From a virus (taxonomy: Duplodnaviria > Heunggongvirae > Uroviricota > Caudoviricetes), in the IMG/VR virus record IMGVR_UViG_643348545_000009, positions 1 to 53,655 of that record: DNA of 53,655 nt, one strand, 5' to 3'. This document shows positions 832 to 52,017 of the stretch, piece after piece. The translations under genes and the position numbers were made by a program. Positions within the stretch are counted from its first letter, which is position 1. The number at the start of each line of letters is the position of its first letter. The notes under the pieces were generated by a model. That model did not search any database. It had not been told where the DNA came from and worked only from the letters and a program-made list of their open reading frames with translations.

Positions 832-2016
832 TTAAAACTCGAAGTTCACACCAACGTTCCAGGAGGCATCGCCATCACTGAATGCCACGCCTGCTTTCGC
901 TGCGGTCTGCTCGTTGAAGCGGTAACCCACACCCACCGCCAGTGCCTGCTGGTCGCTGTAACCACCAACCGCTGCCGTGGCGTTGAATTTACCCACACTG
1001 TACGGCTGGAACAGACCTGTCAGGGCCGCAGACTGTGCTGCTGCACGCTTCATTTCCTTGTGGTTTTCATTAATCTGGCGCTGCTGGCTGTCCAGACGTG
1101 CTGAATGTTGCTGCAGCGTACGGGTATTGGCTGCAATCGCCTTGCTGTTTTTCTCAATGGATTGCGTGTTACGGGTGACACGGCCATCAATGGCACCAAC
1201 TGCTGCATCAATACGGTCAGTACGACCAGACAGGGCCACCAGACCATCGTTAACAGAAATGGTGTTCTTTGCACCTTCTGCACGGGTCAGGGTGCCATCA
1301 GAACTCACACCAACCAGTGTGCGGGATTCGACTTTTGCAGCTGTTGCAGCAGCCGCAGCATCAATCTTGTCGGTACGCGTGGTCAGTTTACCAAGATTTT
1401 GCTTCTGCGCTTCAAGCTCGCCTTTCTGAGCATCAAGCTCATTCGCAACAATGGTGGAGTGGGCGGCCTCCCCTGCCAGATAGCGCTGTAAAGACATGTG
1501 TTCTTCTATTTCACTCGGATCTGCTGCCACATTTCCATACTTATCCAGGCCGACGTTGGTTTTCATCTGCTGGATTGCTGAAACGCGGTTGTACAGGTCA
1601 CGGATATTCTGTTCTGTCAGAAAAACTCCATCATTCTTACGCGCCAACAGTTTATCTTTCCCTGATGCCGCAGTCTTCATAAAATCATGAAGCTCTTTAT
1701 CATAAACAGTAAATGTTGTCGAACCATCCGCAGAGGTAATTGTAACATTACCATTGACATCTATTTTACTTAGCGCCTGAATCGTTTCCCCCCTCTGCGA
1801 TGCTATACTTCCGTCCTGCCCCCATTTTATATAAGCCGTTTTTGTAGCACCATCAAAATATATCCCATACATAGAACCTGAATTACCGTTTTCCGTTTTT
1901 AGCGCAGAATAATCCCCCGTAGCATCCTGTGTATCCTGTGCAAACGATACACAAGGAACAAACAGCGCTGAAAAAACTGCCGCAGACAAAACAGCCTTTG
2001 TAAACTTCTTGCTCAT
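832..2016 (-). CDS. Trimeric autotransporter adhesin with YadA-like C-terminal anchor; Eib-like (immunoglobulin-binding protein) prophage cargo candidate
   Basis: 394-aa ORF; signal peptide [26 protein letters not shown]; long coiled-coil stalk; C-terminus ...[33 protein letters not shown] typical of YadA/Eib beta-barrel anchors; lies just outside the tail fibre genes. Confidence 0.7.
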
Positions 2017-3296: not shown

Positions 3297-4778
3297 TCAG
3301 TATGCGCGCTGGAACAGCCCGATGCCTTCATTGTCATTTGTCGACGTAATTTCATTACACACCATCCATGACCCCGGAACTGAGGATAGGTTGCCGTCAA
3401 TGCCATCGGTGTTAGCTTTCATATAGTTTCCGTTTTCGTCTTTGATTAGGGCGCATCGCTTAAGGCGTGAACCCGATACAGTTTCTCCTGGCTGATAGGT
3501 TCTGCCGATGTCGGTTATATACGGGCCTAGTGCGGCAATAATGTATGTTCCGATGCTGTAAATTTCCCCGGGTACCAGCCTTCCGGTTGGCCCTTGTGGT
3601 CCCTGTGGTCCCTGTGGTCCGGTTTTACCATCCAACCCGGGCGGTCCCATCGGCCCTCGCCCTCCGGCAGGGCCCCGTGGCCCCGGAACACCCTGCGCCC
3701 CCGCTGGTCCCCTTTCACCTCGTGGCCCTGCCGGACCTGCCTTACCTTCCGCTCCGGCGGTACCATCCTTTCCTGCGGGGCCTGCATCACCTTTGGGACC
3801 AGCTGCACCAGCCGGTCCCCGTGGGCCTGCGGGCCCCACTGCACCAGGTGCGCCAGGTTCCCCCCTGTCCCCCTTCGGTCCGGGGACTGCTGCCCGGGTT
3901 GCTGCCTCTTCTGCCTTCGTTTTTGCTGCCTGCACTTCTGCCATTACCGCTTTCACAGCCTTTGGGGTTGCCGCTTTTGTTTCATCATCGCTGTTGGTAT
4001 CGCTGCTCAGCTGTACAACACCTTTCTGTGATGTGCTGGCATCCGGAACACTGGCGACACTGCCTGCGGGACCCGCAGGACCTGTTGCGCCGGGTTCACC
4101 TTTATCCCCTTTCGGGCCGGTTTGCCCTGCCGGACCCTGTGGTCCGGGTGGTCCGGGTGGTCCGGCCTCTCCACGTGGGCCGGTGTCACCTTTCGGCCCC
4201 GGCGGTCCGCCCGGGTCACCTTTATCGCCCTTCGGTCCCTGTGGACCTGTTTCTCCCCGTTCTCCCTTTGGCCCCGGCTCACCTTTTGGTCCGACCGCCC
4301 CCGTTGCCCCGGCTGGTCCCTGTGGCCCTGTGGCACCCTGTGGACCTGTGTCCCCCTTCTCGCCCGCCGGTCCCCGGGCATTCTCTGCCCGTTTCTTCGC
4401 TTCCTCTGCACTCGCCGCCGACGCTTCAGCACGCTTCAGGATTTCCGCTGCCACCGCTTCCAGCTCTGCAAGCGCTTTCGGGTAATACTGCGCCTCATCC
4501 TGTTCCATCAGAAATTTATTCAGCGTTCCCGGCTCAGAATCCGCCTTCACCAGAATGTCACCCACATACGACGGGGCGTACCCTTCCGTGTTCAGCGTCA
4601 CCCGGTACCACCCCGGCTCCACATCAAAACTGTAACTGCCGGTTTCCCCCGGCTGCCCCTGCGCCACCGTGGTGACTATCACTGTCTCTGTGGTGCGTCG
4701 CGCTTTCAGCTCTATGGTGCATCCCGGCACCGGCTTCCCGGTGCCGTCCTTCAGCACGCCCGATATTCTGACTGTCAT
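3297..4778 (-). CDS. stf: Side tail fibre protein (Stf) with collagen-like Gly-X-Y repeats
   Basis: 493-aa ORF; conserved phage tail fibre N-terminal region, then long runs of GPxGxxG collagen-like triplets; ATG at 4776-4778. Confidence 0.85.
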
Positions 4779-4962
4779 AGATTTCTCCCATAAAAAAAAC
4801 CGCAGTACCGGTTACCCGGTCTGCGATCAGGGGTATAAATTGTGACTGGCTGGTGTTAAAGGGTGCCGTCAGTCAAAGGCACCCGTGGATAATGTACGAT
4901 GTCCGGCTTTTGTCGTTTTCCGGCAATCACGAACAGATGGATGAAACCTCACTATCCACCTG

Positions 4963-7900
4963 TCACGATGCGGTATCAAAATCGTCTGTATAGGATTTCA
5001 GGTAAAACAGAACCGGGTCCGGGATCCGAATTTGACTCGTATCATGAAGTATTGAACCACCCCTGTAAAAAAGCACACCTGCTTCATACCTGAATGTAAT
5101 TTCAACCCGCGCATCACCCTGTCCGGCAGGAATACCCCATGAGCCTGACGCACTTCCGCCAACATCAGAATATACCGGCTCATATCTGCTGGCGTTTTTG
5201 GAAATCTGGACCTCCCGCTCCCCGGTTTTGACTTTGCCTGACCTGGCATGAACGACAACTTTGTCATTTATCTTCATGATGAATTCACCTCTGGAAAATG
5301 AATACGCCATAAGCATAAGCTTGCGATCAAACGGCATGTTGTCTTTCAGCAAAATCATTTTCTGAAAAGTCAGCTGGTTCTGAGTCATTACGCCCTGCCC
5401 CATATCAACCGTGTATCCCTTGACGATATCACCAATGATTCGGTCAGCGCTCATCGTTCCATTAATGGTGCAGTCTTCCGCAATCGTCACGTTATTCAGC
5501 GTACCGGAACTGGCACTGATATTCCCGCTGATATCGGCATTACGGGCCGTCAGCCTGCCGTCCGGCGTCAGGGAGAATGCCGGGGGATTGCCGCCGCTGG
5601 TAATGGTGGGGGCGGTAAGAACCTTTATCAGGGCCTCATTGATAAACGTCTGTCCCCCCTGCGTGACCAGTGCGGGTGTGGTATCACCATTCTCCGGATT
5701 AATGAATGCCACACGGTCCGCTGCCAGCAGTATCTGGCTCTGCATCCCGTCAGGGGTGTTCTCAATACCGGCACCGATACCGGCAATATAGCGACGACCA
5801 TCCTGCATCTGCTGTAGCTTCACCGCCCACATGCTGTTCAGGTCATTATTTGTGTCCGTCTGCACACGCTGGATTTGCTGTATGGTGGCGTTCTGGTCCT
5901 CCAGCGTTTTACTGACCGTCTGCGTGATTTCATTGCGGGTTTCGGTGATGGTGGTCTGCATTTCCGCCATCTCGTCCTTCAGCTGACTGTTGTCAATCTC
6001 TGCCCACAGCGCCTCTGCCAGATGCGTTTTTCCTATCTTTTCCCGGAAAAGTTCCAGATAGCCCGCAGCATCATTGCTCGCCCGTCCACTGGCTTCCACA
6101 AAAGCAGATTTACCCACCAGGTTGACGCTGCGCACATAAAACCAGAAATCCTTTCCGGGCTTAATGTGCGGACCGGAGACACTCCACTGACTGCCGGTCC
6201 CCAGATAACGGGCAGAGGTTTCCACCTGTGCGGCGTCTGCAATTTTTGCCTCCGAAAACCAGAACTCAAACTGCACCGTCGGGTCATAAATGGTCAGTTT
6301 CGGGACTGCCGTTATCTGAAAATACCCCGGCGTCAGTTCAACACCGGCAGGCGCTGCCGGTGCGTTAATCCGGAACGTGGTGGTGGCGGGTTCGCCCTGC
6401 TGGCCATAGCTGTTAATCGCCCTGACCGTCAGGGTGTATTCCCCGAGAGGCAGGCCACTGAAACGGTGCTCCGTATCGGCAGTGATGGCGGTGGTCAGCA
6501 GGCGGCTGTTCTCACCGCTTCCACTGGTCAGGCGCAGACTGAAGCGCACGCCCTTCACCACCCGCGGCGTGTCCCATTTCGCCAGCGCCAGATACTGGCC
6601 GTCAGCTGCGCTCACCTCCACCGTCAGGTGCTGCACTGCCGGTGGGATAACGCTGTTCAGGGTGCCTGACTGCGGCTCAAAGCGGGCTCCGTTATCCACA
6701 ATGGCTTCTTTTTCCGGTACGTGCTGCACCGCCGTGATGGCAAAGGTGCCGTCCGTGTTTTCCCGGATGGCCACACAGCGGAACAGGCGACGGCGCAGTG
6801 ACGGCAGGGAGAGTCCCCACACCCCGTATGTCTCCACACCATCAGGCAGGGTACTGACCTGTATCCGGTCCGGCGCGGGGTGTGCGGTGATGTCCACACT
6901 CACCGGCTTACCGCTGCCGTTAATCAGGTTCACCGTCGATGCACCTGTCCCCGGAAGTGTCACTTCACGGTCCAGCGTCAGGGTGCGGGTGGCAGCATCG
7001 ATGGACAGGACACGTCCGCCGGTCAGGGTCCCGGCATAGTCGTTATCACAGATTTCAATAATGTCACCGGGTGTGTGCCGCAGCCCCTGAGACCCGAGTG
7101 TGAAATCCACCGTCTGCGTTTCCAGCAGTTCGGTCTTTATCACCCACAGCCCGGCACGGTGGGCCTGACCGCGGCTGGTACAGCCGAACGCGTCCATCTT
7201 CAGCAGGTTGCGTCCGTAGCGCAGTATGGCTTCCGGGTCTTCCACCAGTTCCGTGGAGGTCTGCCAGCCGTTCTGCGGGTCGGTGTAATTCACCTCCACC
7301 GCCGTGTGCCGGTCCTTCAGGGCACTGAAGCTGTAGCGGAACCCCACGCCGTTATCATCCACCACCACATCGCTGTTGGTGTACGGCCACACCACATCCG
7401 ACGGGCGGTCCTGAACGAACGTCAGCGTCTGGCCGTTCCATACCGGCATACAGCGCATCGCCGAGCAGAAATCACTGAGAACGTCCCACGCCTTACGCTG
7501 TTGTGCCAGGTACGCATTAAAGGTCATCCGCGGCTCTGTGCCCCCGAATCCATCCGGGACCGTCTGGTCGCAGTACTGCCCGATGGCATACAGCGCCCAC
7601 TTGTCCACATCCGCCGCCCCCAGGCGTTTTCCCATCCCGTAGCGCGGGTGAGTCAGCATGTCCCACAGGCACCAGGCCGGGTTGTTGCTGTATGCCGGTT
7701 TCAGACTGCCGTCCCAGATACCACTGTACGTGCGTTTTTCCGGGTCATAGTTTGACGGCACCTGGATGATGCGACCGCGGATATGGTAGTTCACCGTCAT
7801 CTGCTGGCCGCCGAACTGCTCCGCATCCACCTGCAGCCCCACAATGGCCGTGTTCGGGTAGCACTGTTTCACATCGATGATTTCGGTGTATGACGACCAG

Positions 7901-10102: not shown

Positions 10103-11017
10103 TCAGTAGCGATGCAGTGAAGGCGGCAACTCTTTGTTCTTAAGCCTTTCCCACGCCAGAAGGTTCGTCGGCCCGTCAGGCTCATAAATATCTATATCCC
10201 GCGTGTGATTAATTAAAACGCCCCTCGCCCTCCCGATGGTATACGAGAACTCATAGCCGTAGTCGTGGCATATGCCGGAATAGCCAGACTGAATCAGTTT
10301 TAATGCGGGATACAACTCACGGAACAATGCCTGTGAGCGGTTAGCATAATCCCATAGCCATACAAGGCTGTTTGCTTCTTTTGCGGAAAGCTCGTTGGTG
10401 CTCTTCTCTTGTTTGCCGATTAACTCTCCTTCAAGCGGAACGCGAGCAGCAAGTGACAGAGCTTCGGTAAACTGCTCCTCGCTGATTTCTTTGTACGAAC
10501 ATCCAAAATGTGATTTCAGTGACGACCACATGGTGATCATCGCCTTCGCCTGTTTTTCCTTTGGCAGAGACTGACCGCGACTCATGACGAGTTGTTTAAT
10601 GGCTTCCTGCTGTTCAGTAGTGATTTTCCCCGGCAACGCCTTTTTAGCTTTCAGTGTATTTCCGTAAGACCCCGTTTTACGAATGGATGGCAAAACTTCA
10701 GCTGTCACCCATTTGCGGAATTTGTGCGGGACTGAACCTTTATTGACGGCATCGCGGCAACGCAGAACCAATGTATACATACCTGATTCGCTCACAATGC
10801 TTAAATTCTGCTCACCACCAAGGGTGTAACTTAAAGTTACTCCCTTTTCATCGTCATCAAGTGCAGTAAGCGCCTTGCGTGAGTTAGTCAGATTTAAAGC
10901 ATCACAAACATCTTTTGCTACAAACCACGGCTCACCGCACTTGTTGATGACGCGGATTTCACTGTCGCCGAATTTGAAGATGGTGAAATCGTTTTGTGCC
11001 TTTGCTATACTTTTCAT
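10103..11017 (-). CDS. ant: Phage antirepressor (Ant; Bro-N N-terminal domain)
   Basis: 304-aa ORF; N-terminal [30 protein letters not shown] resembles Bro-N/antirepressor domain; downstream of an Arc-like gene as in P22 immI. Confidence 0.85.
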
Positions 11018-11079
11018 GTCAATATTTCCTAATCCGATTTGTTGATACCGAAGCCCTGACTGTTACAGCAGTTGGGGCT

Positions 11080-11220
11080 TCAACTTTTTAGGCTGCGAAT
11101 AAGACGCTGCACTATTTCTGAATTTAAAGACCTGCCCTCCTCCTTAGCCTTTTCCTTCAATTTTTCTTTAATCTCTGGCGGGATACGAATCCCTAATGGA
11201 GCGATATCTCTAACTTTCAT
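11080..11220 (-). CDS. arc: Arc-like ribbon-helix-helix repressor
   Basis: 46-aa product MKVRDIAPLGIRIPPEIKEKLKEKAKEEGRSLNSEIVQRLIRSLKS resembles P22 Arc (…NGRSVNSEIYQRV…); internal ATG at 11218-11220 chosen over the longer ORF. Confidence 0.7.
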   Translation of the reverse strand: MKVRDIAPLGIRIPPEIKEKLKEKAKEEGRSLNSEIVQRLIRSLKS

Positions 11221-11330: not shown

Positions 11331-11579
11331 ATGAAAGGTGCAAGAGATATCAGTCCCTTGGGAATTAGGATTCCAGACTATTTAAAGAAACGCATTCAGC
11401 AGGAAGCGGATAAAAACGGCAGATCAATGAACTCAGAGATTGTGCTTATCCTTCAAAAACATGTTGATAATCTTGATGGCCCTCGCTCACTTGAAGGATT
11501 CGCTAACCAAGAAGCTGACAAATTCAAAGAGGCGCTGCTTGAGACGCTAAAGACCATGTATGGTAAGGATGAAAAATAA
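11331..11579 (+). CDS. mnt: Mnt-like ribbon-helix-helix repressor
   Basis: MKGARDISPLGIRIPDYLKKRIQQEADKNGRSMNSEIVLILQ… resembles P22 Mnt (…NGRSMNSELLQIV…); AGGAGG 5 nt upstream of ATG 11331; divergent from arc-ant. Confidence 0.7.
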   Translation: MKGARDISPLGIRIPDYLKKRIQQEADKNGRSMNSEIVLILQKHVDNLDGPRSLEGFANQEADKFKEALLETLKTMYGKDEK

Positions 11580-12115
11580 TGCTGCACACAATTCATTTCT
11601 TATGCCCCGTTAACACTGCCACTGTTGGGCAACTTCAGAACCACTGTCTCACCGCATTATCTCAAGGCGCAACTGAATTAAATATCCATATATCAAGTCA
11701 GGGAGGGGAAACTGCCGCTGGCTTTACTGCGTATAACTTTCTTAAGTCACTCCCTGTTACCGTTAGAACTCACAACATAAGCAATGTTGAATCCATAGCT
11801 AATATCGTTTTCCTGGCTGGCTCAGAACGTTTCGCAAACCCATTATCAAGATTCCTGTTACATCCTCTATTATGGGTCTTTGCCACCCCAGCCGCCGACC
11901 ATGCCAGATTGAGAGAGTACGGGAAATGCCTCGATAACGATCTTGATCGCTTCGTTGAGACGTTCAATATCGACATCGGAACCCATATTAGGTGGGCATC
12001 CCTGATAGCAGACTCGACCATTTTGGATGCTAACAAGGCTCTTGAGCATGGCATAATTAATTCCATAAAAACTGCAAGGCTGGTATCCAATCAGGCAAAC
12101 TGGTGGGTTGTTTGA
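11579..12115 (+). CDS. ClpP-fold serine peptidase homologue, translationally coupled to mnt
   Basis: 178-aa ORF; ISSQGGETAAGFTAYNFL…SNVESIANIVFLAG…RFANPLSRFLLHPL aligns with the ClpP core (INSPGG…GQAASMGAFLLTAG…RFCLPNSRVMIHQP) with Ser and His retained; start ATG overlaps mnt stop (TAATG). Confidence 0.6.
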   Translation: MLHTIHFLCPVNTATVGQLQNHCLTALSQGATELNIHISSQGGETAAGFTAYNFLKSLPVTVRTHNISNVESIANIVFLAGSERFANPLSRFLLHPLLWVFATPAADHARLREYGKCLDNDLDRFVETFNIDIGTHIRWASLIADSTILDANKALEHGIINSIKTARLVSNQANWWVV

Positions 12116-13066: not shown

Positions 13067-14230
13067 TCAGAACTGATAAGTCATACCAACAGCAACGATA
13101 TCATCCGTTGCAATGCCCGCATCCCTGGTAAACTTATTCTCATCAACCAGATTGATTTTATAATCAACATAGGTGGACATATTTTTATTGAAGTAATATT
13201 TCGCACCTACGTCAACATACTTAACCAAATCCTGGTCACCATAGTTTTTACCACCTACAATGACATCCTGAGCACGAGACTGCAGGAATGCCAGAGATGG
13301 ACGCAGACCGAAATCAAACTGATACTGCAGTACCGCTTCAAAGTTTTGCGCTTTATCTGCAACTCCTTTATCACCAAAGGTCGTCAGATTCTGAGTTTCG
13401 GAATATGTTGTAGCCAGGTAAAGGTTGTCAGCATCGTATTTTAGTCCGACTCCCCACATCTCAGCGTGTTTACCTTTTGCAACACTACCGGAATCAACAA
13501 CGATCTGCTTTTCAGTCACTTTACCGGTTAAAGGATCAGTTTGTTCAATCGTCAGAGTACCATTCAGACCTTTTTCCTGATTATTGGTTCGGTCCGCATT
13601 AATATATGCGGCAACGATACCAAAACCTTCATATTCATAACTGGCTGAGAAACCGTGACCATCACCATTAGCTTTCCGGAGATCACCCCGATCATTTTTA
13701 CCCTGGTACTGTGCCGCAAAATTCAGGCCATCGACAAGCCCAAAGAAATCTGTATTACGATAGGTTAATACCCCGGAAGTACGGGCTGTCATGAAGTTAT
13801 CGGTCTGGGTCCAGCCATCACCGCCAAACTCTGGTAATACGTCAGTATAAGAACCAACATCGTACGCAATACCATAGTTACGACCATAATCAATGGTGCC
13901 AAACTCACCAAACTTCAGACCTGCAAATGCAAGACGGGTTTTATTACCCGCAGCACCCTCTGATTCAGCTTTATTACCAGAGAACTGATATTCCCACTGA
14001 CCAAAACCAGTCAACTGGTCATTAATCTGAGTTTCACCTTTAAAGCCCAGACGTGCGTATGTCTTATCTCCATCATCCCCCTTATCACTGGAGAAATAAT
14101 GGAGTGCAGTTGCACGCCCATACACATCAAGTTTATTGCCATCTTTATTGTATACTTCTGCAGCCTGCGCCCCCGCTGCAAAAATTACAGCTGCTGCCAC
14201 AGCTGAAAGTGCCACTGTCATTTTTTTCAT
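13067..14230 (-). CDS. General porin, OmpC/OmpF/NmpC/Lc family (phage-borne moron)
   Basis: 387 aa; signal peptide ending AQA; porin motifs throughout; C-terminal …VAVGMTYQF aromatic terminus; AAGGA upstream of ATG; AT-rich own promoter region 14231-14436. Confidence 0.9.
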
Positions 14231-36119: not shown

Positions 36120-38108
36120 TTATGATGATGCCCGGCTTTCGTTAACTTTGACTGTGACCGTATCAAGCAGTACAGGATACGTCGCTTTTGCCCCCGTGAT
36201 ATCTGTCAGCGTCAGCGTATCTGCTGTAAAGCCATCATTTGTCCACATCACAAGGTCAAACGCCGTCTGCTCTGTACCATCAATTACCGGAACGACTCTT
36301 TCGCTGTTATTTCCCGCAAAGCGGAAAACAACCGTATGCCAGTTATGGTCAAACGCACCAAATGTACCCAGTTGTGCATTCGACGTGCCCTTGTGGTGCA
36401 TAAGATTCAGATTTGATGCATCCGTCTGAAGGAAGAATGATGCCAGCATACTGTTTGCTGCCGCGCCTGACGCCCACTGCGACACCGGCCAGTAGAGACC
36501 AAAGACAAACTGTCCGTTCACCAGTTCGCTTCCATCCGGAATTTTGAACCGTACGGCAATTTCACCCCCCTTGCTGAGAAGATTTTTTGCCTCCTCCACT
36601 GCAACAGTACGGAACATTTTCCAGGACGTCAGTTTACCGGGCTGTTTTTCCAGTCGTAGCGCTTTCCGTCCACCGTCATCAGTCACAGTGCCTTTGCCAC
36701 CGGCAGCCCCCCACTGCTGCTCTGTCCATACACCATTTCCACTGTTCGCATCATATTCAGCCACCGTCCTGGTACTGCTCACGGCCTCATCATGACCAGT
36801 ACCAGCAACACCGCCATCCTGCGGTTTCTCAACACCCGGTACCCCCGGACTGACATCATCACCGGGAGTTGTACCACCCAACTGCGGTGCGCTCTGCCCG
36901 GTAAGGAACGATAATGTCCGCCCGGCGTACTGCAAAATGGCACCTGCCAGGCGGTCTGAAACAATGCCTCTTCGCGCCCATGAACTGAAGTGCGTTTTAC
37001 GATCGGCTGACGTCCAGTTACTGGCAGTGCGTGACGCAGCACCATAGTATCCCGCCGGGATAATGTCCGGATCTTCTGACGGCTCGTTTGTCGGCACATT
37101 CACACCATGCTCATCCGTCATCAACGGCACAAAGAAGATTTTTTTTGCGGATTTCGTCTTGTATGCACCATACACCGCATCGTATTGCGAAGAATAAGTC
37201 TGCTTCCAGTAGTAGGTCGTGTCGCCACAAATCCAGGGAACCGATGACGGAGAGCCCCCGAGACACTGACCTCCGAATTCCGACAGGTCAGAACGATATT
37301 TTTCCACCATGGAATCAAACAGCCCCGGCTGAGTGGCGTATGCACCCTGTTTCAAATCAAACTCGCCCTGCATCCAGACCACTGCAAGCAGAATATTTTT
37401 AGGGTTAGCCTTCAGTGCGGCCTGAGTACGGGTAAGCAGGTCCTTGTACAGTGGCTTATCTACACCCCAGCGTGCCGAGGTCTCGCTTGCGCCGGTGGAT
37501 TCGCTGAAAGTACCTTCATCGCCCTCCAAAAATGCAGAACCACCACGGCAGCACGGAACCAGAAGAATACCGGCATTCGCCGGAATAAACGGCAGCAGTT
37601 TTTTGGCGATATGCAGCCCCTGCCCCACGGTTCCGTACTGCCCCTTTGACAAGTCCGCTTTCGGATGGTTAAGACGGCTCATGTCCTGTACATCATGCAG
37701 ACAATGGTCCGCCGGAATGATGTCGTTATATTTACAGGCGACACCACCCGGTGTCACCGTACTGCGACGCGCCAGTTGCTTAATGCGCGGGTCCGGACGG
37801 TCATATGTCTCCGGCAGCGGCAGCCCTTCACCAAAAGACATTGAGTTTGACTGCCCCGCCAGAACAACAACAAAGTAATACTCCGGTTCGCTGGTGGTGC
37901 TGATAACTGTGCCTTCTCCATCCGACGGCTTCACCACCACAGGTGTGGTGACATCACCTTCCGCCGCAATGGCCTGCATCAGGGTATAAGGCGTGATGGC
38001 GACAGGGCTGCCAAATGGCTGCCACCCCTCCTTCAGTTTTTGTGTCAGTCGCTCCGCAAGGTCTGACGGCGACGCCGCCCTGACCACATCGTAGTGTTTA
38101 AATGTCAT
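36120..38108 (-). CDS. nanS-p: Prophage-encoded sialate O-acetylesterase-like protein (NanS-p-like; DUF1737 N-terminus plus SGNH-type esterase)
   Basis: 662 aa; N-terminal MTFKHYDVVRAASPSDLAERLTQKLKEGWQPFGSPVAI… DUF1737-like; …VVLAGQSNSM… SGNH-like motif; position between Q and lysis genes as in Stx-type phages; GGGAGG upstream of ATG. Confidence 0.8.
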   Translation of the reverse strand: MTFKHYDVVRAASPSDLAERLTQKLKEGWQPFGSPVAITPYTLMQAIAAEGDVTTPVVVKPSDGEGTVISTTSEPEYYFVVVLAGQSNSMSFGEGLPLPETYDRPDPRIKQLARRSTVTPGGVACKYNDIIPADHCLHDVQDMSRLNHPKADLSKGQYGTVGQGLHIAKKLLPFIPANAGILLVPCCRGGSAFLEGDEGTFSESTGASETSARWGVDKPLYKDLLTRTQAALKANPKNILLAVVWMQGEFDLKQGAYATQPGLFDSMVEKYRSDLSEFGGQCLGGSPSSVPWICGDTTYYWKQTYSSQYDAVYGAYKTKSAKKIFFVPLMTDEHGVNVPTNEPSEDPDIIPAGYYGAASRTASNWTSADRKTHFSSWARRGIVSDRLAGAILQYAGRTLSFLTGQSAPQLGGTTPGDDVSPGVPGVEKPQDGGVAGTGHDEAVSSTRTVAEYDANSGNGVWTEQQWGAAGGKGTVTDDGGRKALRLEKQPGKLTSWKMFRTVAVEEAKNLLSKGGEIAVRFKIPDGSELVNGQFVFGLYWPVSQWASGAAANSMLASFFLQTDASNLNLMHHKGTSNAQLGTFGAFDHNWHTVVFRFAGNNSERVVPVIDGTEQTAFDLVMWTNDGFTADTLTLTDITGAKATYPVLLDTVTVKVNESRASS

Positions 38109-38210
38109 GAATCCTCCCGGTCGGGATAATGTTGTGAGTCAGATGAGGGGCGGGCTGAAGTCCGGAAGTTACAGGACAATGGCAGGAGGAAGACTACAGC
38201 CCGCAATACG

Positions 38211-38235
38211 AAAAAGGCCGCGCAGTTGCGCAGCC
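38211..38235 (-). terminator. Intrinsic terminator about 100 bp upstream of the esterase gene
   Basis: Hairpin GGCTGCGCAACTGCGCGGCC followed by UUUUU on the minus strand. Confidence 0.4.
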
Positions 38236-38290
38236 TTATGAATTCTGGTTAAAATCCATTCGATTATAAAAATGTATATCTCATGCTGTT

Positions 38291-38316
38291 GCCCGAACCC
38301 ACTCGGGCTTTTTTTT
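38291..38316 (+). terminator. Plus-strand intrinsic terminator-like hairpin
   Basis: GCCCGA-ACCCACT-CGGGC followed by T8. Confidence 0.4.
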
Positions 38317-38326
38317 GCCCACAAGA

Positions 38327-38556
38327 AAGCCCCTCCGGAGAGGGGCTAAAGCCGCGTATCTGTATCATCATGCACATGGTGCCGGGTGCCTCCCGGTGAG
38401 TTCAGCCCGGTGCCACTAAACCCGCGTCATTCTCGTTTTGATAATCAGAGATTATACCGTCACCAGTCGCCCCTCCGCTCAGGGGGATTCACCATGCGAA
38501 ATTTTTTTAACAAATGCCCAGTCTGACAGGCAACTGTCAACTTACTGAATTGTGAG
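38327..38556. repeat. Copy A of a ~230-bp hairpin-rich element
   Basis: Shares with copy B: AAAGCCCCTCCGGAGAGGGGCT, ATGCCGGGTGCCTCCCGGTGAGTTCAG, CCCCTCCGC.CAGGGGGATTCACCATGC, TTTTAACAAA, CAGTCAAC, CTGAATTGTGAG, in the same order. Confidence 0.6.
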
Positions 38557-38812
38557 CAACATAGCATTTAACGGGGAACCTGTTTTCTGCAGTAAAAAGG
38601 CCCACCGGAGCGGATGGGCCTGGAAGGATAGCGGTCATGTGATGCCGGTTTCCCGGTAACTCAGCACCGGTATCTGAGTCAACGTTTTCTCTACTGGGTC
38701 ATTTCCGATACGCCCTGCCTGCTGACAGGCTTTCATCACATCTGAAAATATAGCACCCTGACTGATACTGTAGTACCTAAGGTTCCAGAAACTGTGATGT
38801 ATCCGGCACAGA

Positions 38813-39039
38813 AAAGCCCCTCCGGAGAGGGGCTGGAGAGTGGCGCTATGTGCCATTGCATGATGCCGGGTGCCTCCCGGTGAGTTCAGTATCAGCACCT
38901 GAACCCGCACAGAAAGGATAAGGGTCGGTGACAAAACACCAGTCGCTGATTGCCCCTCCGCACAGGGGGATTCACCATGCCAGTTTCTTTTAACAAACTC
39001 CCCGCAAACCAGACAACAGTCAACCGCCTGAATTGTGAG
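38813..39039. repeat. Copy B of the ~230-bp hairpin-rich element
   Basis: Same ordered motif set as copy A; diverged spacers. Confidence 0.6.
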
Positions 39040-42185: not shown

Positions 42186-42352
42186 CGGTTGTCTCTGCTG
42201 GCGCAGCAGGTGCCAGTTGTTCAGGCTGGCGTGCGAATTGTAAACCAGAATGCCAGGAAAAAACAAAACCCGCCGAAGCGGGTTAAGTGCGGGTGCGTTG
42301 AGGATGCCTGACTCATCAGAGGTGGCGAGGGATTTCTCCCTCGCCAGGTCTC

Positions 42353-42508
42353 TTACTCCTCAGGTTCGTAAGCTGTGAAGACAGCGACCTCCGTCTGGCC
42401 GGTTCGGATTCGTACCTCGCAGAGGTCTTTCCTCGTTACCAGTGCCGTCACAATGACGGTAATACAGATGACGATCAGGGCGACTAACATCGCCTTTTGC
42501 TGCTTCAT
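42353..42508 (-). CDS. hok: Hok/Gef family type I toxin (HokD/RelF-like)
   Basis: 51 aa MKQQKAMLVALIVICITVIVTALVTRKDLCEVRIRTGQTEVAVFTAYEPEE, near-identical to recalled HokD. Confidence 0.9.
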   Translation of the reverse strand: MKQQKAMLVALIVICITVIVTALVTRKDLCEVRIRTGQTEVAVFTAYEPEE

Positions 42509-42744
42509 AGCCTGCTTCTCCTTGCCTTTCGGCGTGTAAGAGGCTAACCTACATGTGACTAGCATGAAATTGGCCTCAGATTAATGTTAAGCGTCCTGCA
42601 AGACGCATAATGTTAACTGGGGCTTTTCTCTATCTGCCGTTGGTGTTCATGCCCGAGGCAGATAGCCTCAAGCACCCGCAGCAATTCTACTTAACTCACG
42701 TCACCTCGCCAATATGAAATCAATCAGAAAGGTGATCCATAAAA

Positions 42745-43431
42745 TCACTCCTTCTCTTCTTTTCCGTAGTGGAGTTGGCCAATTTTGATAAGAGGGCGTC
42801 CCTGAGATTTGCGGTGTAGATTGGTATCGCGCAGAGAATACACACAGCCACAATATTCCTGCTGATAGAATTTTTCGCGCTTGCTGATTTCAATCATACG
42901 GGACGAGCCGCCCTGCTTGCGCCAGTTATAATCCCAGTACACCATACCCGGATAATGCGCAACAGCTCGCCGCCCACACTCGTTAACCTGCTGCATATTT
43001 TTCCAGCGTGAAATGCCCAGTGAACTGCTGATCACACTGAAACCATTTTCAGCAGCGTACAACGCTGTCCGCTCAAAACGCATGTCAAAACACATGGTAC
43101 AACGGATCCCCCTCTCAGGCTCCCATTCCATTCCTTTGGCACGTTCAAACCAGTTGTCGGTGTCGTAATCAGCATCGATAAACGGCACGCCGTGTTGTTC
43201 AGCAAAGCGAATATTTTCATCCTTACGAATTAAATACTCTTTCTGAGGATGAATGTTCGGGTTGTAGAAAAAGATGGTGTAGTCGATTCCCGAGGCCTGA
43301 AGCGCCTCCATCACTTCACCGGAACATGGAGCACAGCAAGAGTGCAGTAGTAGTTTGTTTGCCCCGTTTGGGAGTTCCAATTTAGGCCGTTTGAAATCAG
43401 CAATAGTCATAAATATTTTTATTGGGGTCAT
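42745..43431 (-). CDS. DUF208 / epoxyqueuosine reductase QueH-like protein
   Basis: 228 aa; N-terminal …[15 protein letters not shown]… and downstream Cys pairs (CTMC, YCGCVY) match my recollection of the DUF208/QueH signature. Confidence 0.6.
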
Positions 43432-43584
43432 GAAAATAGCACAGAGTGTAGCATCAGAGCAGGGCTATCGGGAATATATGTCTAAATCTGGTAATATCTG
43501 GTTTTGACGCAAAGCGGACAACCACGCTGGCTCTACCCTGCGCCATGAAAATGTCAATTCACATCTGAACTAATGCTCTTTAAT

Positions 43585-43980
43585 CTAGTAACGTCTAAAA
43601 TACCTAACATTTCCTTGATAAAATGCCAGTACACGCTGCATAACTTCGCTCTGGCGGCACTCACGACAAATTATGTTCTGCCGTCTGTTGTAACGACGTA
43701 TTTCTCCGTCAGGTAACTTTCGAATCAGTGTCGGGTCAGCAGCCTTCTCCGGTGTCTTACGCCATACGCGATACGCCTGCTCTGATGGAAATACCCCGCA
43801 ATCAGAGAGCCAGACATCACCACTGGCCGCAAGCGCACCAGATAAACGACGAATAGCGGTCTTACTGACACCCGTTTTATCTGCCAGTTGTCGAAAAGTT
43901 TCTCGTCCGCTCAGGCGCACGAATTCCACAATGCGCGCCTTCACTTCTTCCCGCTCTTCTGGTGTAAATACTTTTGCCAT
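43585..43980 (-). CDS. Hypothetical HTH DNA-binding protein
   Basis: 131 aa from ATG 43980 (GGAGG upstream); HTH-like segment LADKTGVSKTAIRRLS. Confidence 0.45.
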   Translation of the reverse strand: MAKVFTPEEREEVKARIVEFVRLSGRETFRQLADKTGVSKTAIRRLSGALAASGDVWLSDCGVFPSEQAYRVWRKTPEKAADPTLIRKLPDGEIRRYNRRQNIICRECRQSEVMQRVLAFYQGNVRYFRRY

Positions 43981-43995
43981 AAGCGCCTCCGGCAA

Positions 43996-44721
43996 TCACT
44001 TTTCCGACACAATACGACCGGATGAATCGACAATCTGTCGAACAATATCCCGGTGCTTGTTCAGCTCCCGCAGCGCGGCGCAGACTCGCTCCCACTTCTG
44101 AACCTGACCTTTTGCCCGGCGCAGCTCGCGGTTAGCCACATGCAGCGATGGTAAAATCAGACCATCCGGATGTTTTCTGGTGAACGACGGCTGTGACTGC
44201 ACTGTGACCGCCACACTTTCCGTTTTTATTTCTTCCTGTGTTTCTGCTTCCCGGACAGGTAACGCAACACCTGCTGGCTGAGGAAAGGCTTTACCATCGG
44301 TTTCCGCTACGGATGCAGCTTCCGGCTCTGCCGGTAAATCAGCGCCCGGTATGCAGTAACGAAATTTACCGCCCTGATTCACGCGAATCAGACGCCCTTT
44401 GCTGATTGCCATGGCCAGCGATGAATTCGCCCGGCGGGAGGTAATCCCGAACATCAGTGCCAGCTCATCCGCCGTTTGTGGGCCATGTTGTTCAATCGCC
44501 TCAGTCAGCATTTGCGCTGTCACTTTCGGTACCGGTGACACCGGTTCACTTTCACCAGCCTGAATCAGCCGCCACATCGAACCCTTGTTATCCGCTTCAC
44601 CGCGGCGCTTCAGTTTCCACAGTTCGTTGACCGCATCTTCACGGCTGATTCCAAGGCGGGCCGCCACTACCTGTGAAGAGGCTCTTTTCAGTGCTTTCAG
44701 TGCGTCAAATACGGTTTCCAT
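43996..44721 (-). CDS. Hypothetical winged-helix-like phage protein (DUF1627-like?)
   Basis: 241 aa from ATG 44721 (GGAGGA upstream); N-terminal …[35 protein letters not shown]…. Confidence 0.45.
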
Positions 44722-48952: not shown

Positions 48953-49010
48953 CCCATGCGTAGTCTTTGGTGGCATCAGTTCTACTCCGTGACTGCTCTG
49001 CCACCCTTTT
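48953..49010 (+). ncRNA. dicF: DicF-like small RNA with terminator
   Basis: …TTTGGTGGCATCAGTTCTACTCCGTGACTGCTCTGCCACCCTTTTT closely matches recalled E. coli DicF (…TTTGGCGGTATCAGTTTTACTCCGTGACTGCTCTGCCGCCC); lies just upstream of dicB. Confidence 0.6.
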
Positions 49011-49659: not shown

Positions 49660-52017
49660 ATGAACGCTGATAAAGAAGAAATTGCACTATATTACGAAGC
49701 CAAAAATGACAAAGTCAGAAAACGCCTTGGGATTAAAGGTGGTTTTTACTGGCGCACAGCAAAAAAATTATCGGTTGCAATATCACGCGGTGTTGCTGCA
49801 ATGGACGATGCCGGATTTGACGAAGAGGATTTTAAAAAACCCATCCGCGTCCATTTACCCGTTGTGAATGACCTTCCACCGGAAGGTGTGTTTGATACTG
49901 AATTCTGCAACCGATACGAAAAAGGCGGAGAAGATGGTATCACAATGATATTTATAGCGCCCTCCCCCTCAGTTCAGGACAAACCAGCCAGCACTGACAA
50001 TACCAACGTCAATGGCGAAGACATGGCTGAGATTGAGGATAATATGCTCCTGCCGATTTCCGGTCAGGAACTGCCCATTCGCTGGCTTGCGCAACATGGC
50101 AGCGAAAAACCGGTAACGCACGTTTCACGAGAAGAACTTCAGGCATTACATATCGCACGAGCTGAAGAACTACCGGCTGTTACTGGCCTGGCTATTTCCC
50201 ACAACACAAAGCTGCTCGACCCGCTGGAGATTCGCGACCTTCACAAATTGGTACGCGACACTGACAAAGTTTTCCCTAATCCCGTTAATTCCAGTCTGGG
50301 GTTCATGACTGCTTTTTTCGAAGCATACCTGGACACTGACTATACCGATCGAGGTCTGCTGACAAAAGAGTGGATGAAAGGAAATCGTGTTTCTCGCATC
50401 ACCCGCACGGCTTCCGGTGCAAATGCCGGTGGCGGAAATAAAACCGATCGTAATCCTGACTTAGTACACACCCTCGATACTCTGGATGTGGAGGCTGCAG
50501 CAGCCACGCTTCCGATGGATTTTAATATTTATGAAATTCCCGGGAGCGTTTATCGTCGCGCAAAAGAAATCGTCCTGAAAAAAGAAAGTCCGTTCAGGGA
50601 ATGGTCCGCAGCACTTCGCGCAACCCCTGGTATCCTGGACTATTCCCGCGCAGCTATTTTTGCACTTATCCGAAGCGCCCACCCTGAGTTTTATCACTAC
50701 CCGGGGCGCCTTCAGGGGTATATCAATGCCAACCTGACAGAAACTGATCACGAGAATCCCACAGCTGAAACGCTCATGGCTGCCCGGCATACACCGGAAA
50801 AAGATATCCTGGAAGAAATTAACGGCGGACTGGCTGCTGAGTGCAAAACAGAAGAAGAAAAAAATGATGAAGATAACCCGCAGCCGCTGGATGACAAGTC
50901 ACAGGTAAAAGTTACCGCTGACGAAGTAAACAAAATTATGCAGGCAGCCAATATCAGCCAGCCTGACGCCGATAAGTTGCTTGCTGCCTCTCGCGGAGAA
51001 TTTGTTGCAGGGATTAGCGACCCGAATGATCCGAAATGGGTAAAGGGGATTGAAACCCGCGATTCTGTAAACCAGAACCAGCAAGAATCGGAACAGAACG
51101 ACCAGAAAGCGGAACAAAACAGCCCAAATGCGTTACAAAACGAGCCAGAAACGAAACAACCTGAACCAGTAGTGCAACAAGAACCGGAAAAGATCTGCAC
51201 CGCCTGCGGTCAGACCGGCGGCGGCAACTGCCCTGATTGTGGCGCGGTGATGGGCGACGCAACATACCAGGAAACATTCGATGAAGAGAATCAGGTTGAA
51301 GTTCAGGAAAATGATCCGAAGGAAATGGAAGGCGCTGAACATCCACACAAGGAGAATGCTGGCAGCGCTCAGGATCACGCCAGCGATAGTGAAACTGGCG
51401 AGACGGCAGATCCCTTAATTACGGTGAACGGTCATCACGTTATCACATCCACCAGCAGGTTGTGGCACCATCTGATGATTGACCTTGAAACAATGGGCAA
51501 AAATCCTGATGCCCCGATTATCTCAATAGATGCAATATTTTTCGATCCGCAAACCGGAGATATGGGACCGGAATTTAGTAAGACTATCGATCTGGAAACT
51601 GCTGGCGGAGTCATTGATCGTGACGTCATTAAAAGGTGGCTGAAGCAATCACGTGAAGCGCAGTCTGCCATTATGACCGATGAAATCCCGTTAGATGATG
51701 CACTGTTACAATTGCGGGAATTTATCGACGAAAACTCCGGTGAATTTTTTGTTCAGGTCTGGGGAAATGGAGCCAACTTCGAAAACACGATTTTGCGCCG
51801 TTCATACGAACGGCAGGGGATCCCCTGCCCGTGGCGTTACTACAACGATCGCGATGTACGCACAATCGTTGAGCTGGGGAAAGCCATAGACTTCGATGCC
51901 AGAACTGCTACCCCATTCGAAGGTGAGCGCCATAATGCACTTGATGACGCCCGTTATCAGGCAAAATACGTTTCAGCTATCTGGCAAAAACTGATCCCGA
52001 GTCAGGCTGATTTTTAA
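49660..52017 (+). CDS. Large exonuclease-like protein (YdfE/ExoVIII-position) with C-terminal DEDD-type 3'-5' exonuclease domain
   Basis: 785 aa; acidic Q/E-rich linker, zinc-ribbon-like [17 protein letters not shown]-terminal …[11 protein letters not shown]…DAIFFD…WGNGANFE…[11 protein letters not shown]… DnaQ-like motifs. Confidence 0.7.

Follow-up and report, generated by a model that had tools for sequence, protein, structure and literature searches.

The queH Locus of the Prophage

The window, meaning here the whole stretch of 53,655 nucleotides that was analysed, is a complete-looking lambdoid prophage with its integrase at the right end. Its early-right operon runs on the minus strand and comprises the genes for a YdaS-like protein, YdaT, a DnaT-like replication protein, P, DUF1627, DUF977, queH, hok/sok, orf119, DUF968, RusA and Q. 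The gene under study had been placed by an earlier note, made from the letters alone, at 42745-43431 in the nin-like region of a prophage, and both the position and the setting are borne out: an open reading frame of 228 amino acids with an ATG start, as given by the longest-ORF call, occupies exactly 42745..43431 on the minus strand, and queH is located between the replication genes and Q. It had also stated that Qin carries relBE at this place, which is correct: the order in MG1655 Qin is ydfT(Q)-ydfU(DUF968)-rem-hokD-relE-relB and that in the window Q-RusA-DUF968-orf119-hok-QueH, so that queH occupies exactly the place of relBE.

Those coordinates require one correction, because the probable start of queH is the second ATG, Met8, at 43410, giving a protein of 221 amino acids. 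The RefSeq entry WP_000150294.1, named 'epoxyqueuosine reductase QueH', begins at Met8 and is identical to the window protein over its 221 amino acids, and the orthologues from Erwinia, Scandinavium, Enterobacter and other genera start at the equivalent methionine, sharing the leader M-T-x-x-x-F-K-R-P-K-L-x-L-P. Since RefSeq and the orthologues agree on Met8 and the 7-codon N-terminal extension before it is not conserved in the chromosomal orthologues, the coding sequence is taken as 42745-43410. No recognisable Shine-Dalgarno sequence precedes either ATG (43431 or 43410) on direct inspection of the sequence. The features of the locus are as follows, with residues numbered, here and below, from the first codon of the 228-aa frame:

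42353..42677, minus strand: hok/sok type I toxin-antitoxin module, downstream neighbour of queH and one border of the slot (Pfam HOK_GEF, E = 1.3e-23; Rfam sok, 113 bits)
42745..43410, minus strand: queH coding sequence, 221 aa from Met8 (Pfam PF02677, PDB 7lc5, RefSeq WP_000150294.1, N-termini of orthologues)
42844..42852, minus strand: CGC motif (C194, C196), invariant in 19 of 19 diverse QueH proteins including that of T. maritima
43090..43101, minus strand: CxxC motif (C111, C114), likewise invariant in 19 of 19 including T. maritima
43324..43338, minus strand: CCAPC motif (C32, C33, C36), aligned with C9, C10 and D13 of T. maritima QueH (phmmer against 7lc5)
43411..43526, minus strand: 5' non-coding part of the queH cassette, kept whatever gene precedes it
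43445..43453, minus strand: candidate extended -10 promoter element TGCTACACT, 43 nt before the Met8 ATG and the same in all prophage alleles
43585..43995, minus strand: DUF977 gene, upstream neighbour of queH and the other border of the slot (Pfam DUF977, E = 3.8e-40)

Family Membership, Cysteine Motifs and Fold

The assignment to the QueH family is supported by profile, structure and motif. Residues 27-201 match positions 1-174 of the 175 of the Pfam QueH profile (PF02677, formerly DUF208; IPR003828) with E = 1.1e-65 and 221.5 bits against a gathering cut-off of 23.5, a match that, as a sequence comparison, lies far beyond chance. The earlier proposal of a DUF208 protein of the QueH type is upheld by this profile search, and the RefSeq name agrees with it. 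Searched with phmmer against the PDB sequences, the protein matches only the T. maritima QueH entries 7lc5, 7lc7 and 9deu and the mutants 9dco and 9d86 (E about 1e-21; best match 7lc5, E = 7.8e-22), with an identity of about 31% over 175 residues. Meanwhile, the NCBIfam profile scan of the window protein gives no model match, and the RefSeq name must therefore have another source, probably evidence of the Pfam or BlastRule type. In PHROGs, the protein falls in phrog_3217, whose profile starts only at Met41 of the window protein; many phage gene calls in this family would therefore be N-terminally truncated and lack the CCAPC motif.

The conservation of cysteines was followed in an alignment of 19 diverse QueH sequences, namely the window protein, T. 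maritima QueH, records labelled as phage (with S. aureus and Listeria as hosts), five sequences from faecal metagenomes with 32-52% identity to the window protein, and 10 proteobacterial chromosomal proteins. The Staphylococcus and Listeria 'phage' records and the faecal 'Bacteriophage sp.' records are UNVERIFIED and unannotated, so they serve here solely as diverse QueH sequences and are set aside as proof of phage carriage. C32, C33, C111, C114, C194 and C196 are invariant in all 19 sequences, and position 36 is a cysteine in 18 of them, the only exception being the aspartate of T. maritima (D13). In addition, CCAPC is present in each of the 120 nearest database homologues. The N-terminal 10-residue string quoted in the earlier note corresponds to residues 28-37 of the 42745..43431 frame, and the downstream cysteine pairs that it pointed to are those of RCTMC (C111/C114) and YCGC (C194/C196).

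These positions coincide with what we take to be the metal-ligand residues of QueH, an N-terminal CCxxC/D, a central CxxC and a C-terminal CxC, and judging by the alignment the window protein carries all of these putative ligand cysteines. With cysteine at position 36, it appears to have the majority form of the QueH site. C9S and D13N mutants of the T. maritima enzyme are present in the PDB, indicating that these two positions were targeted for study.

Regarding the fold, an AlphaFold2 model built from a 33-sequence alignment is of moderate confidence (pLDDT 74.3, pTM 0.76). Its five best PDB matches are the QueH structures 7lc5, 7lc7, 9d86, 9deu and 9dco (E = 3.5e-9 to 9.5e-8; target-normalised TM 0.72-0.78), followed by the Fe-S tRNA thiolases (TtuA) of the same superfamily with TM below 0.5. 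The window protein is thus predicted to have the fold of the solved QueH structures.

Cassette Borders and the Accessory Slot

The limits of the cassette can be read from the breaks in homology, which lie near 42742 and near 43526. Where a genome lacks queH, its homology to the hok module sets in near 42742, at the queH stop codon; on the other side, about 115 bp before the queH ATG align in four prophage contexts, with either the DUF977 gene or a methyltransferase fragment lying upstream. When a 1.7-kb query spanning DUF977, queH and hok was used, 13,583 partial matches were obtained in E. coli genomes, compared to 1,017 for queH itself. These comparisons describe queH as a discrete insertion between conserved phage genes that is absent from related prophages. 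The base composition also changes at this place, the G+C fraction being 0.41-0.49 around the 5' part of the cassette compared to 0.52-0.59 in the flanks.

The slot accepts other cargo as well. In strain E21, queH is followed by one open reading frame and then by a KwaB-like anti-phage gene in place of hok; together with relBE in K-12 and the sharp borders, this marks the slot as a hot-spot for cargo, in which queH is one among several alternative cassettes. The right-hand part of the prophage, the last 23.7 kb of the window (30000-53655), is mosaic, and none of the complete E. coli genomes matches it over at least 80% of its length. Moreover, there are no tRNA genes in the window, and hence no link of queH to phage-borne tRNAs.

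Chromosomal Relatives and Origin

Outside Escherichia, the nearest relatives by amino acid identity are found in Scandinavium (92%), Kluyvera (91%), Enterobacter (88-90%) and Symbiopectobacterium (87%), followed by Erwinia (85-86%) and by Providencia, Proteus, Photorhabdus and Serratia (about 80-86%); overall, the chromosomal queH products of other Enterobacterales are 80-92% identical to the prophage protein. Alpha-, beta- and other gamma-proteobacterial QueH proteins are still 74-80% identical, marking QueH as a very conserved enzyme. A match to 'Acinetobacter phage MD-2021a' (78% identity) was discarded, as this record is a mislabelled bacterial chromosome contig with soxR, tadA and similar genes, and no phage.

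The contexts of the relatives that were examined are ordinary non-phage chromosome. In Erwinia, queH lies between a purL-type gene and a two-component sensor kinase gene (HAMP/HisKA/HATPase); in Providencia, it is near a TmcA-family gene and a SAICAR synthetase (purC-type) gene; the Enterobacter gene adjoins those for isocitrate dehydrogenase and chorismate mutase, and the Scandinavium gene stands amid dehydrogenase and Hcp genes. Another copy, 85% identical, adjoins DNA methylase and Vsr genes of the dcm/vsr type. When the eleven early-region proteins of the window were searched by tblastn against 80 species-representative loci, lambdoid neighbours were found near queH in Escherichia albertii alone; they accompany all 80 of the IMG/VR loci, each with a DUF977 gene nearby. 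For this reason, the prophage-borne arrangement seems to be confined to Escherichia, with a chromosomal queH of the Enterobacteriaceae as the probable donor.

Occurrence and Selection in Escherichia

By megablast, queH is found in 995 of 5426 complete E. coli genomes (18%). At least 80% of the gene length is retained in 985 of the 995 carriers, the remaining 10 holding less than 80%, and the identity is at least 99% in 707 carriers, 95-99% in 181 and 90-95% in 107. The gene is labelled 'epoxyqueuosine reductase QueH' by RefSeq in E. coli carriers, UniRef also uses the name QueH, and the exact window protein is recorded on at least 1000 contigs. Relatives occur on 189 IMG/VR contigs, the best 80 IMG/VR matches being 100% identical to the query. 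Carriage is also seen in an isolated phage, Escherichia phage HannyBb (PP925841, 45 kb), which has queH at the same position with 95% identity, annotated as 'hypothetical protein'.

Compared with two diverged prophage alleles, the window allele shows dS values of 0.285 and 0.115 and dN values of 0.016 and 0.007, giving dN/dS ratios of 0.057 and 0.058, respectively. A ratio of about 0.06 among prophage alleles means strong purifying selection on queH within the prophage lineage.

Upstream Region and Candidate Promoter

When the sequences 5' of queH in three prophage alleles were aligned with their counterparts from Scandinavium, Kluyvera and Enterobacter, one invariant block emerged, TGCTACA(A/C)T (TGCTACAMT), 43-44 nt before the ATG. 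The block is present at -43/-44 in front of the chromosomal queH genes of Scandinavium, Kluyvera, Enterobacter quasihormaechei and Symbiopectobacterium, the rest of the upstream region being unalignable, and it follows the pattern of an extended -10 element (TGnTAnAAT). The looser pattern TGnTAnnnT occurs within 110 nt upstream in 23 of 79 chromosomal loci compared to 5% of random background windows, and the strict form of the extended -10-like motif in 7 of 79 compared to 0.2%. Nucleotide homology to Scandinavium reaches 50 bp 5' of the ATG, and divergence in the 115-bp non-coding upstream part is roughly half of that at synonymous sites of the coding sequence. A scan for consensus promoters upstream of queH made no call, and there is no -35 match. 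Taken together, the comparison is suggestive of the TGCTACA(A/C)T block being a promoter of queH itself.

The idea of a riboswitch or a structured leader in front of queH was dropped, as this region has no Rfam match and a fold z-score of only -0.93. Likewise, no terminator lies between the queH stop codon and hok/sok, the only one predicted in 42200-44100 being at 42267-42284, downstream of hok. This makes read-through from the early-right operon possible, and queH may be transcribed in this way and be silent in lysogens.

Queuosine Completion, QueG and the Proposed Role of the Prophage Enzyme

QueH is an iron-sulfur enzyme that converts epoxyqueuosine (oQ34) into queuosine (Q34) in tRNA-Asp, -Asn, -His and -Tyr. 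E. coli does not synthesise B12 de novo and must import the cofactor; the gut is rich in corrinoids, and how frequently E. coli is limited for B12 in nature is therefore uncertain. In the outer membrane, corrinoids are transported by BtuB, which is also the receptor for E-group colicins and for some phages.

The production of oQ and Q by E. coli is well established (PMC5372724, PMC4646009, PMC9508795). As described by Frey et al. (1988), cited in PMC4646009, the final step of Q synthesis in E. coli is cobalamin-dependent; it is carried out by QueG, which contains B12 and two [4Fe-4S] clusters (PMC4646009) and is one of the four cobamide enzymes of E. coli (PMC11841063). QueH is a non-orthologous replacement of QueG in this last step, from oQ-tRNA to Q-tRNA (PMC5372724, PMC9508795), and a cobamide-independent alternative to the cobamide-dependent enzyme (PMC6461909, PMC5372724). 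The earlier note had stated that E. coli relies on the non-homologous QueG, and the genomes agree: all 5426 complete E. coli genomes carry queG, every queH carrier included, which means that each carrier has both enzymes. From its two functional suggestions, an effect on the completion of tRNA queuosine is favoured by the evidence, while a role in a 7-deazaguanine (DNA modification) pathway is unsupported, with no partner gene in the 40 open reading frames searched.

We consider it probable that the gene encodes a functional QueH which, as a captured moron, supplies lysogens with a cobalamin-independent reduction of oQ. In the course of events proposed here, a chromosomal Enterobacteriaceae queH would have been captured along with some 50 bp of the promoter-proximal sequence belonging to it. 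The accessory slot that the DUF977 gene and hok/sok delimit in a Qin/Rac-type lambdoid phage would have received it, and it would now be spreading among Escherichia prophages as a moron. As every E. coli has the B12-requiring QueG, the prophage enzyme would add no new reaction; it would duplicate that of QueG and free it of the cofactor requirement, in a pairing that may be comparable, by analogy, to MetE/MetH. A lysogen could then complete Q synthesis when corrinoids are scarce or their uptake has been lost. The analysis itself establishes the family of the protein, the conservation of its ligands, its fold, the purifying selection on it, the structure of the cassette and the coexistence with queG; we infer the enzymatic activity in E. 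coli, the expression of the gene in the lysogen from a promoter of its own and the benefit of sparing B12. The stronger form of this proposal, in which queH is a lysogenic-conversion gene whose own-promoter expression of a B12-independent enzyme uncouples queuosine completion in the host from the corrinoid supply and from BtuB, is put forward tentatively, as a possibility with somewhat less than an even chance of being right.

Several other readings of the locus have to be weighed against this one. QueH could be used by the phage in lytic growth only, being transcribed with the early-right genes after induction so that more Q is made and NAU/NAC codons are better translated. Its place inside the early-right operon, on the same strand and between the replication genes and Q, fits this idea, as does the lack of a terminator separating it from its neighbours, and a 2026 preprint on Shewanella describes shifts in queG expression and in Q levels upon phage infection, with effects on NAT-biased genes. 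However, NAU codons show no enrichment in the phage open reading frames, which have a NAU fraction of 0.558 compared to 0.62 in the sampled flanking host genes, so that a phage need for Q in NAU-rich genes was dismissed as unsupported; moreover, the cassette retains the promoter-like element of its chromosomal ancestors, and the QueG of the host already performs the reaction whenever B12 is present. A purely lytic use is thus regarded as unlikely. The gene could also have hitch-hiked as a passenger that is selected for no function in E. coli, its conservation reflecting recent capture and lambdoid recombination. A recent spread would indeed account for the 707 of 995 E. coli copies that are at least 99% identical and for the best 80 IMG/VR matches being 100% identical, and the reaction duplicates that of QueG; yet diverged alleles, with dS up to 0.29, keep a dN/dS of about 0.06, just 10 of the 995 carriers hold less than 80% of the gene, and the putative ligand residues are all intact, which makes a passenger quite improbable.

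The usual cargo of the slot raises the idea of defence or counter-defence, for example by altering the anticodon modification seen by tRNA-targeting toxins or nucleases: relBE occupies the slot in the Qin prophage of K-12, the KwaB-like anti-phage gene of strain E21 lies downstream of queH past one open reading frame, and hok/sok adjoins queH in the window. No PADLOC-DB model matches QueH or the seven neighbouring open reading frames, however, the sequence has hardly diverged from that of the chromosomal non-phage orthologues, and the cassette has no specific partner gene; such a role is very doubtful. Participation in a phage 7-deazaguanine pathway of DNA modification or anti-restriction is scarcely credible, even though phages do modify their DNA with 7-deazaguanines through enzymes of the Que pathway (PMC6884629, PMC10516641). 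A Pfam scan of 40 open reading frames of the window, from the early, lysis, structural and cargo regions, found no homologue of TGT/DpdA, FolE, QueA, QueC, QueD, QueE or QueF, and this absence of any partner gene led to the rejection of the idea. Known phage systems end at derivatives of preQ0, preQ1 or G+, and the virus survey contains no QueA, QueG or QueH (PMC6884629); QueH acts after the tRNA-specific QueA step; an identity of 80-92% to chromosomal non-phage queH products speaks against this pathway as well. The supply of a cobalamin-independent oQ reduction to lysogens is therefore retained as the preferred reading.

Novelty and Significance

The QueH family, its reaction and its structure are already known, as is the name of this exact protein in RefSeq and UniRef, and with the gene already named in about 1000 genomes the novelty is lower. 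The result is a correct and slightly under-appreciated annotation together with a testable physiological hypothesis; it is no new kind of system, and the discovery is a modest one. In the searchable literature, no mention of a phage- or prophage-borne QueH was found, nor a paper on WP_000150294, and Hutinet et al. (2019) reported no QueA, QueG or QueH homologues in the viruses that they analysed (PMC6884629). There is in addition an annotation gap, as the gene is 'hypothetical' or of 'unknown function' in phage resources (HannyBb and PHROG 3217, respectively) and is named in the RefSeq bacterial genomes.

About one in five complete E. coli genomes has a prophage-borne second enzyme for the last queuosine step, non-homologous to the first and B12-independent. 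If it is expressed in lysogens, this would be a clear case of a phage changing the cofactor dependence of a translation-related pathway of its host, and it would offer a simple genetic handle on what Q does beyond oQ. If the proposal is true, lysogens could maintain their tRNA in the fully modified state in niches poor in B12 or once BtuB has been lost, and among phage-borne enzymes of the tRNA-specific queuosine branch, a class absent from the viruses of the 2019 survey (PMC6884629), QueH would be the first to be functionally defined.

Comparison with Known Systems

The structurally characterised relative is T. maritima QueH (7LC5, 7LC7, 9DEU), with which the window protein has in common the full-length profile match, the six invariant cysteines and, as far as the model goes, the fold. 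They differ in the residue at position 36, where T. maritima has Asp13 and the window protein Cys36, cysteine being the majority form in the family; besides, the window protein is longer by about 20 residues at the C-terminus, carries a short leader at the N-terminus and is encoded by a prophage. The resemblance is closer to the chromosomal queH genes of Enterobacterales (Scandinavium, Kluyvera, Enterobacter, Erwinia, Providencia, Photorhabdus and Serratia), which have the same length and start as the prophage copy and, in the closest genera, the same TGCTACAMT block 43 nt upstream. The surroundings are different, because none of the lambdoid neighbours of the window are near the chromosomal genes, whereas the prophage copy is flanked by DUF977 and hok/sok.

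Compared with QueG (YjeS) of E. coli, which according to the literature catalyses the same reaction from oQ-tRNA to Q-tRNA, the prophage enzyme is non-homologous. QueG is B12-dependent and belongs to the core genome (5426 of 5426), whereas QueH is accessory (18% of the genomes) and B12-independent (PMC6461909). The DpdA systems of phages, in which DpdA is accompanied by FolE, QueD, QueE and QueC, draw on the same queuosine/7-deazaguanine biochemistry, but none of their signature genes are among the window open reading frames that were scanned. Finally, queH resembles other lambdoid morons, such as relBE-hokD of Qin, in being a discrete cassette between conserved phage genes; it has a candidate promoter, without a detected terminator of its own, and differs from them in its cargo, which is a tRNA-modification enzyme rather than a toxin-antitoxin, virulence or defence gene.

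Cargo of the queH slot

Directly downstream of queH, the gene for a QueH-family epoxyqueuosine reductase, lies a complete hok/sok locus, comprising a Hok/Gef ORF, which is a mok-like reading frame, and a sok match in Rfam at 113 bits. Homology between the window and K-12 stops at 42522; in the Qin prophage of K-12, relBE replaces the hok 5' regulatory region. The prophage of E. coli E21 has two other genes after queH in place of hok/sok: one encodes a hypothetical protein of 204 aa, the other is a KwaB-like (Kiwa) anti-phage gene. Defence cargo is exchanged in the slot adjoining queH.

Window 42353-42677, minus strand: hok/sok type I toxin-antitoxin locus
NZ_CM143892.1, positions 3308-5821 of the E21 locus (L012): queH, 204-aa hypothetical gene, KwaB-like gene

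QueH in phage resources

The QueH protein is entered in PHROG 3217 as unknown function, and its homologue in phage HannyBb is annotated as 'hypothetical'.

PP925841.1, 33011-33697 (6001-6687 of L014, the HannyBb locus): queH homologue

Because the PHROG 3217 profile begins at Met41, past the CCAPC motif, it suggests that QueH-family gene calls in phage genomes are systematically truncated at the N-terminus. Several 'phage' records with QueH matches (CAKLQH020000001.1, OR844989.1, MT83xxxx) probably represent contigs of bacterial chromosomes or virome scaffolds that are unverified, and they should be excluded from tallies of phage-borne QueH; an example is the 'Acinetobacter phage MD-2021a' record, which spans 328 kb and carries soxR, tadA and cynX.

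Other modules of the prophage

A second cargo gene of the prophage encodes an OmpC/NmpC-like porin (Pfam Porin_1, E = 1.8e-139), and it is located within the tail-gene block. At the left end of the window, adjoining the tail-fibre genes, is encoded a trimeric autotransporter, possibly Eib-like. An immI-like module is inserted among lambda-like tail genes, pairing an antirepressor with Bro-N and P22_AR_C domains and the sar antisense RNA (Rfam, 69 bits).

832-2016, minus strand: 394-aa protein with YadA-like membrane anchor
10103-11085: P22-type antirepressor (minus strand) and sar (plus strand)
11579-12115, plus strand: ClpP-like ORF
13067-14230, minus strand: full-length general porin gene
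48955-49006, plus strand: DicF sRNA (59 bits)
49660-52017, plus strand: 785-aa exonuclease fusion protein

In the last of these, the N-terminal domain of exonuclease VIII is joined to a 3'-5' exoribonuclease domain of the Rv2179c-like type.

36120-39009: segment downstream of Q, with two STnc100 copies, an AsxR match and a SASA/DUF6645 esterase gene

Here, the STnc100 sRNA copies score 165 and 138 bits, and the AsxR ('anti-stx2') sRNA match scores exactly its gathering score. The arrangement of this segment looks like the late region of Stx phages, but toxin genes were not seen.
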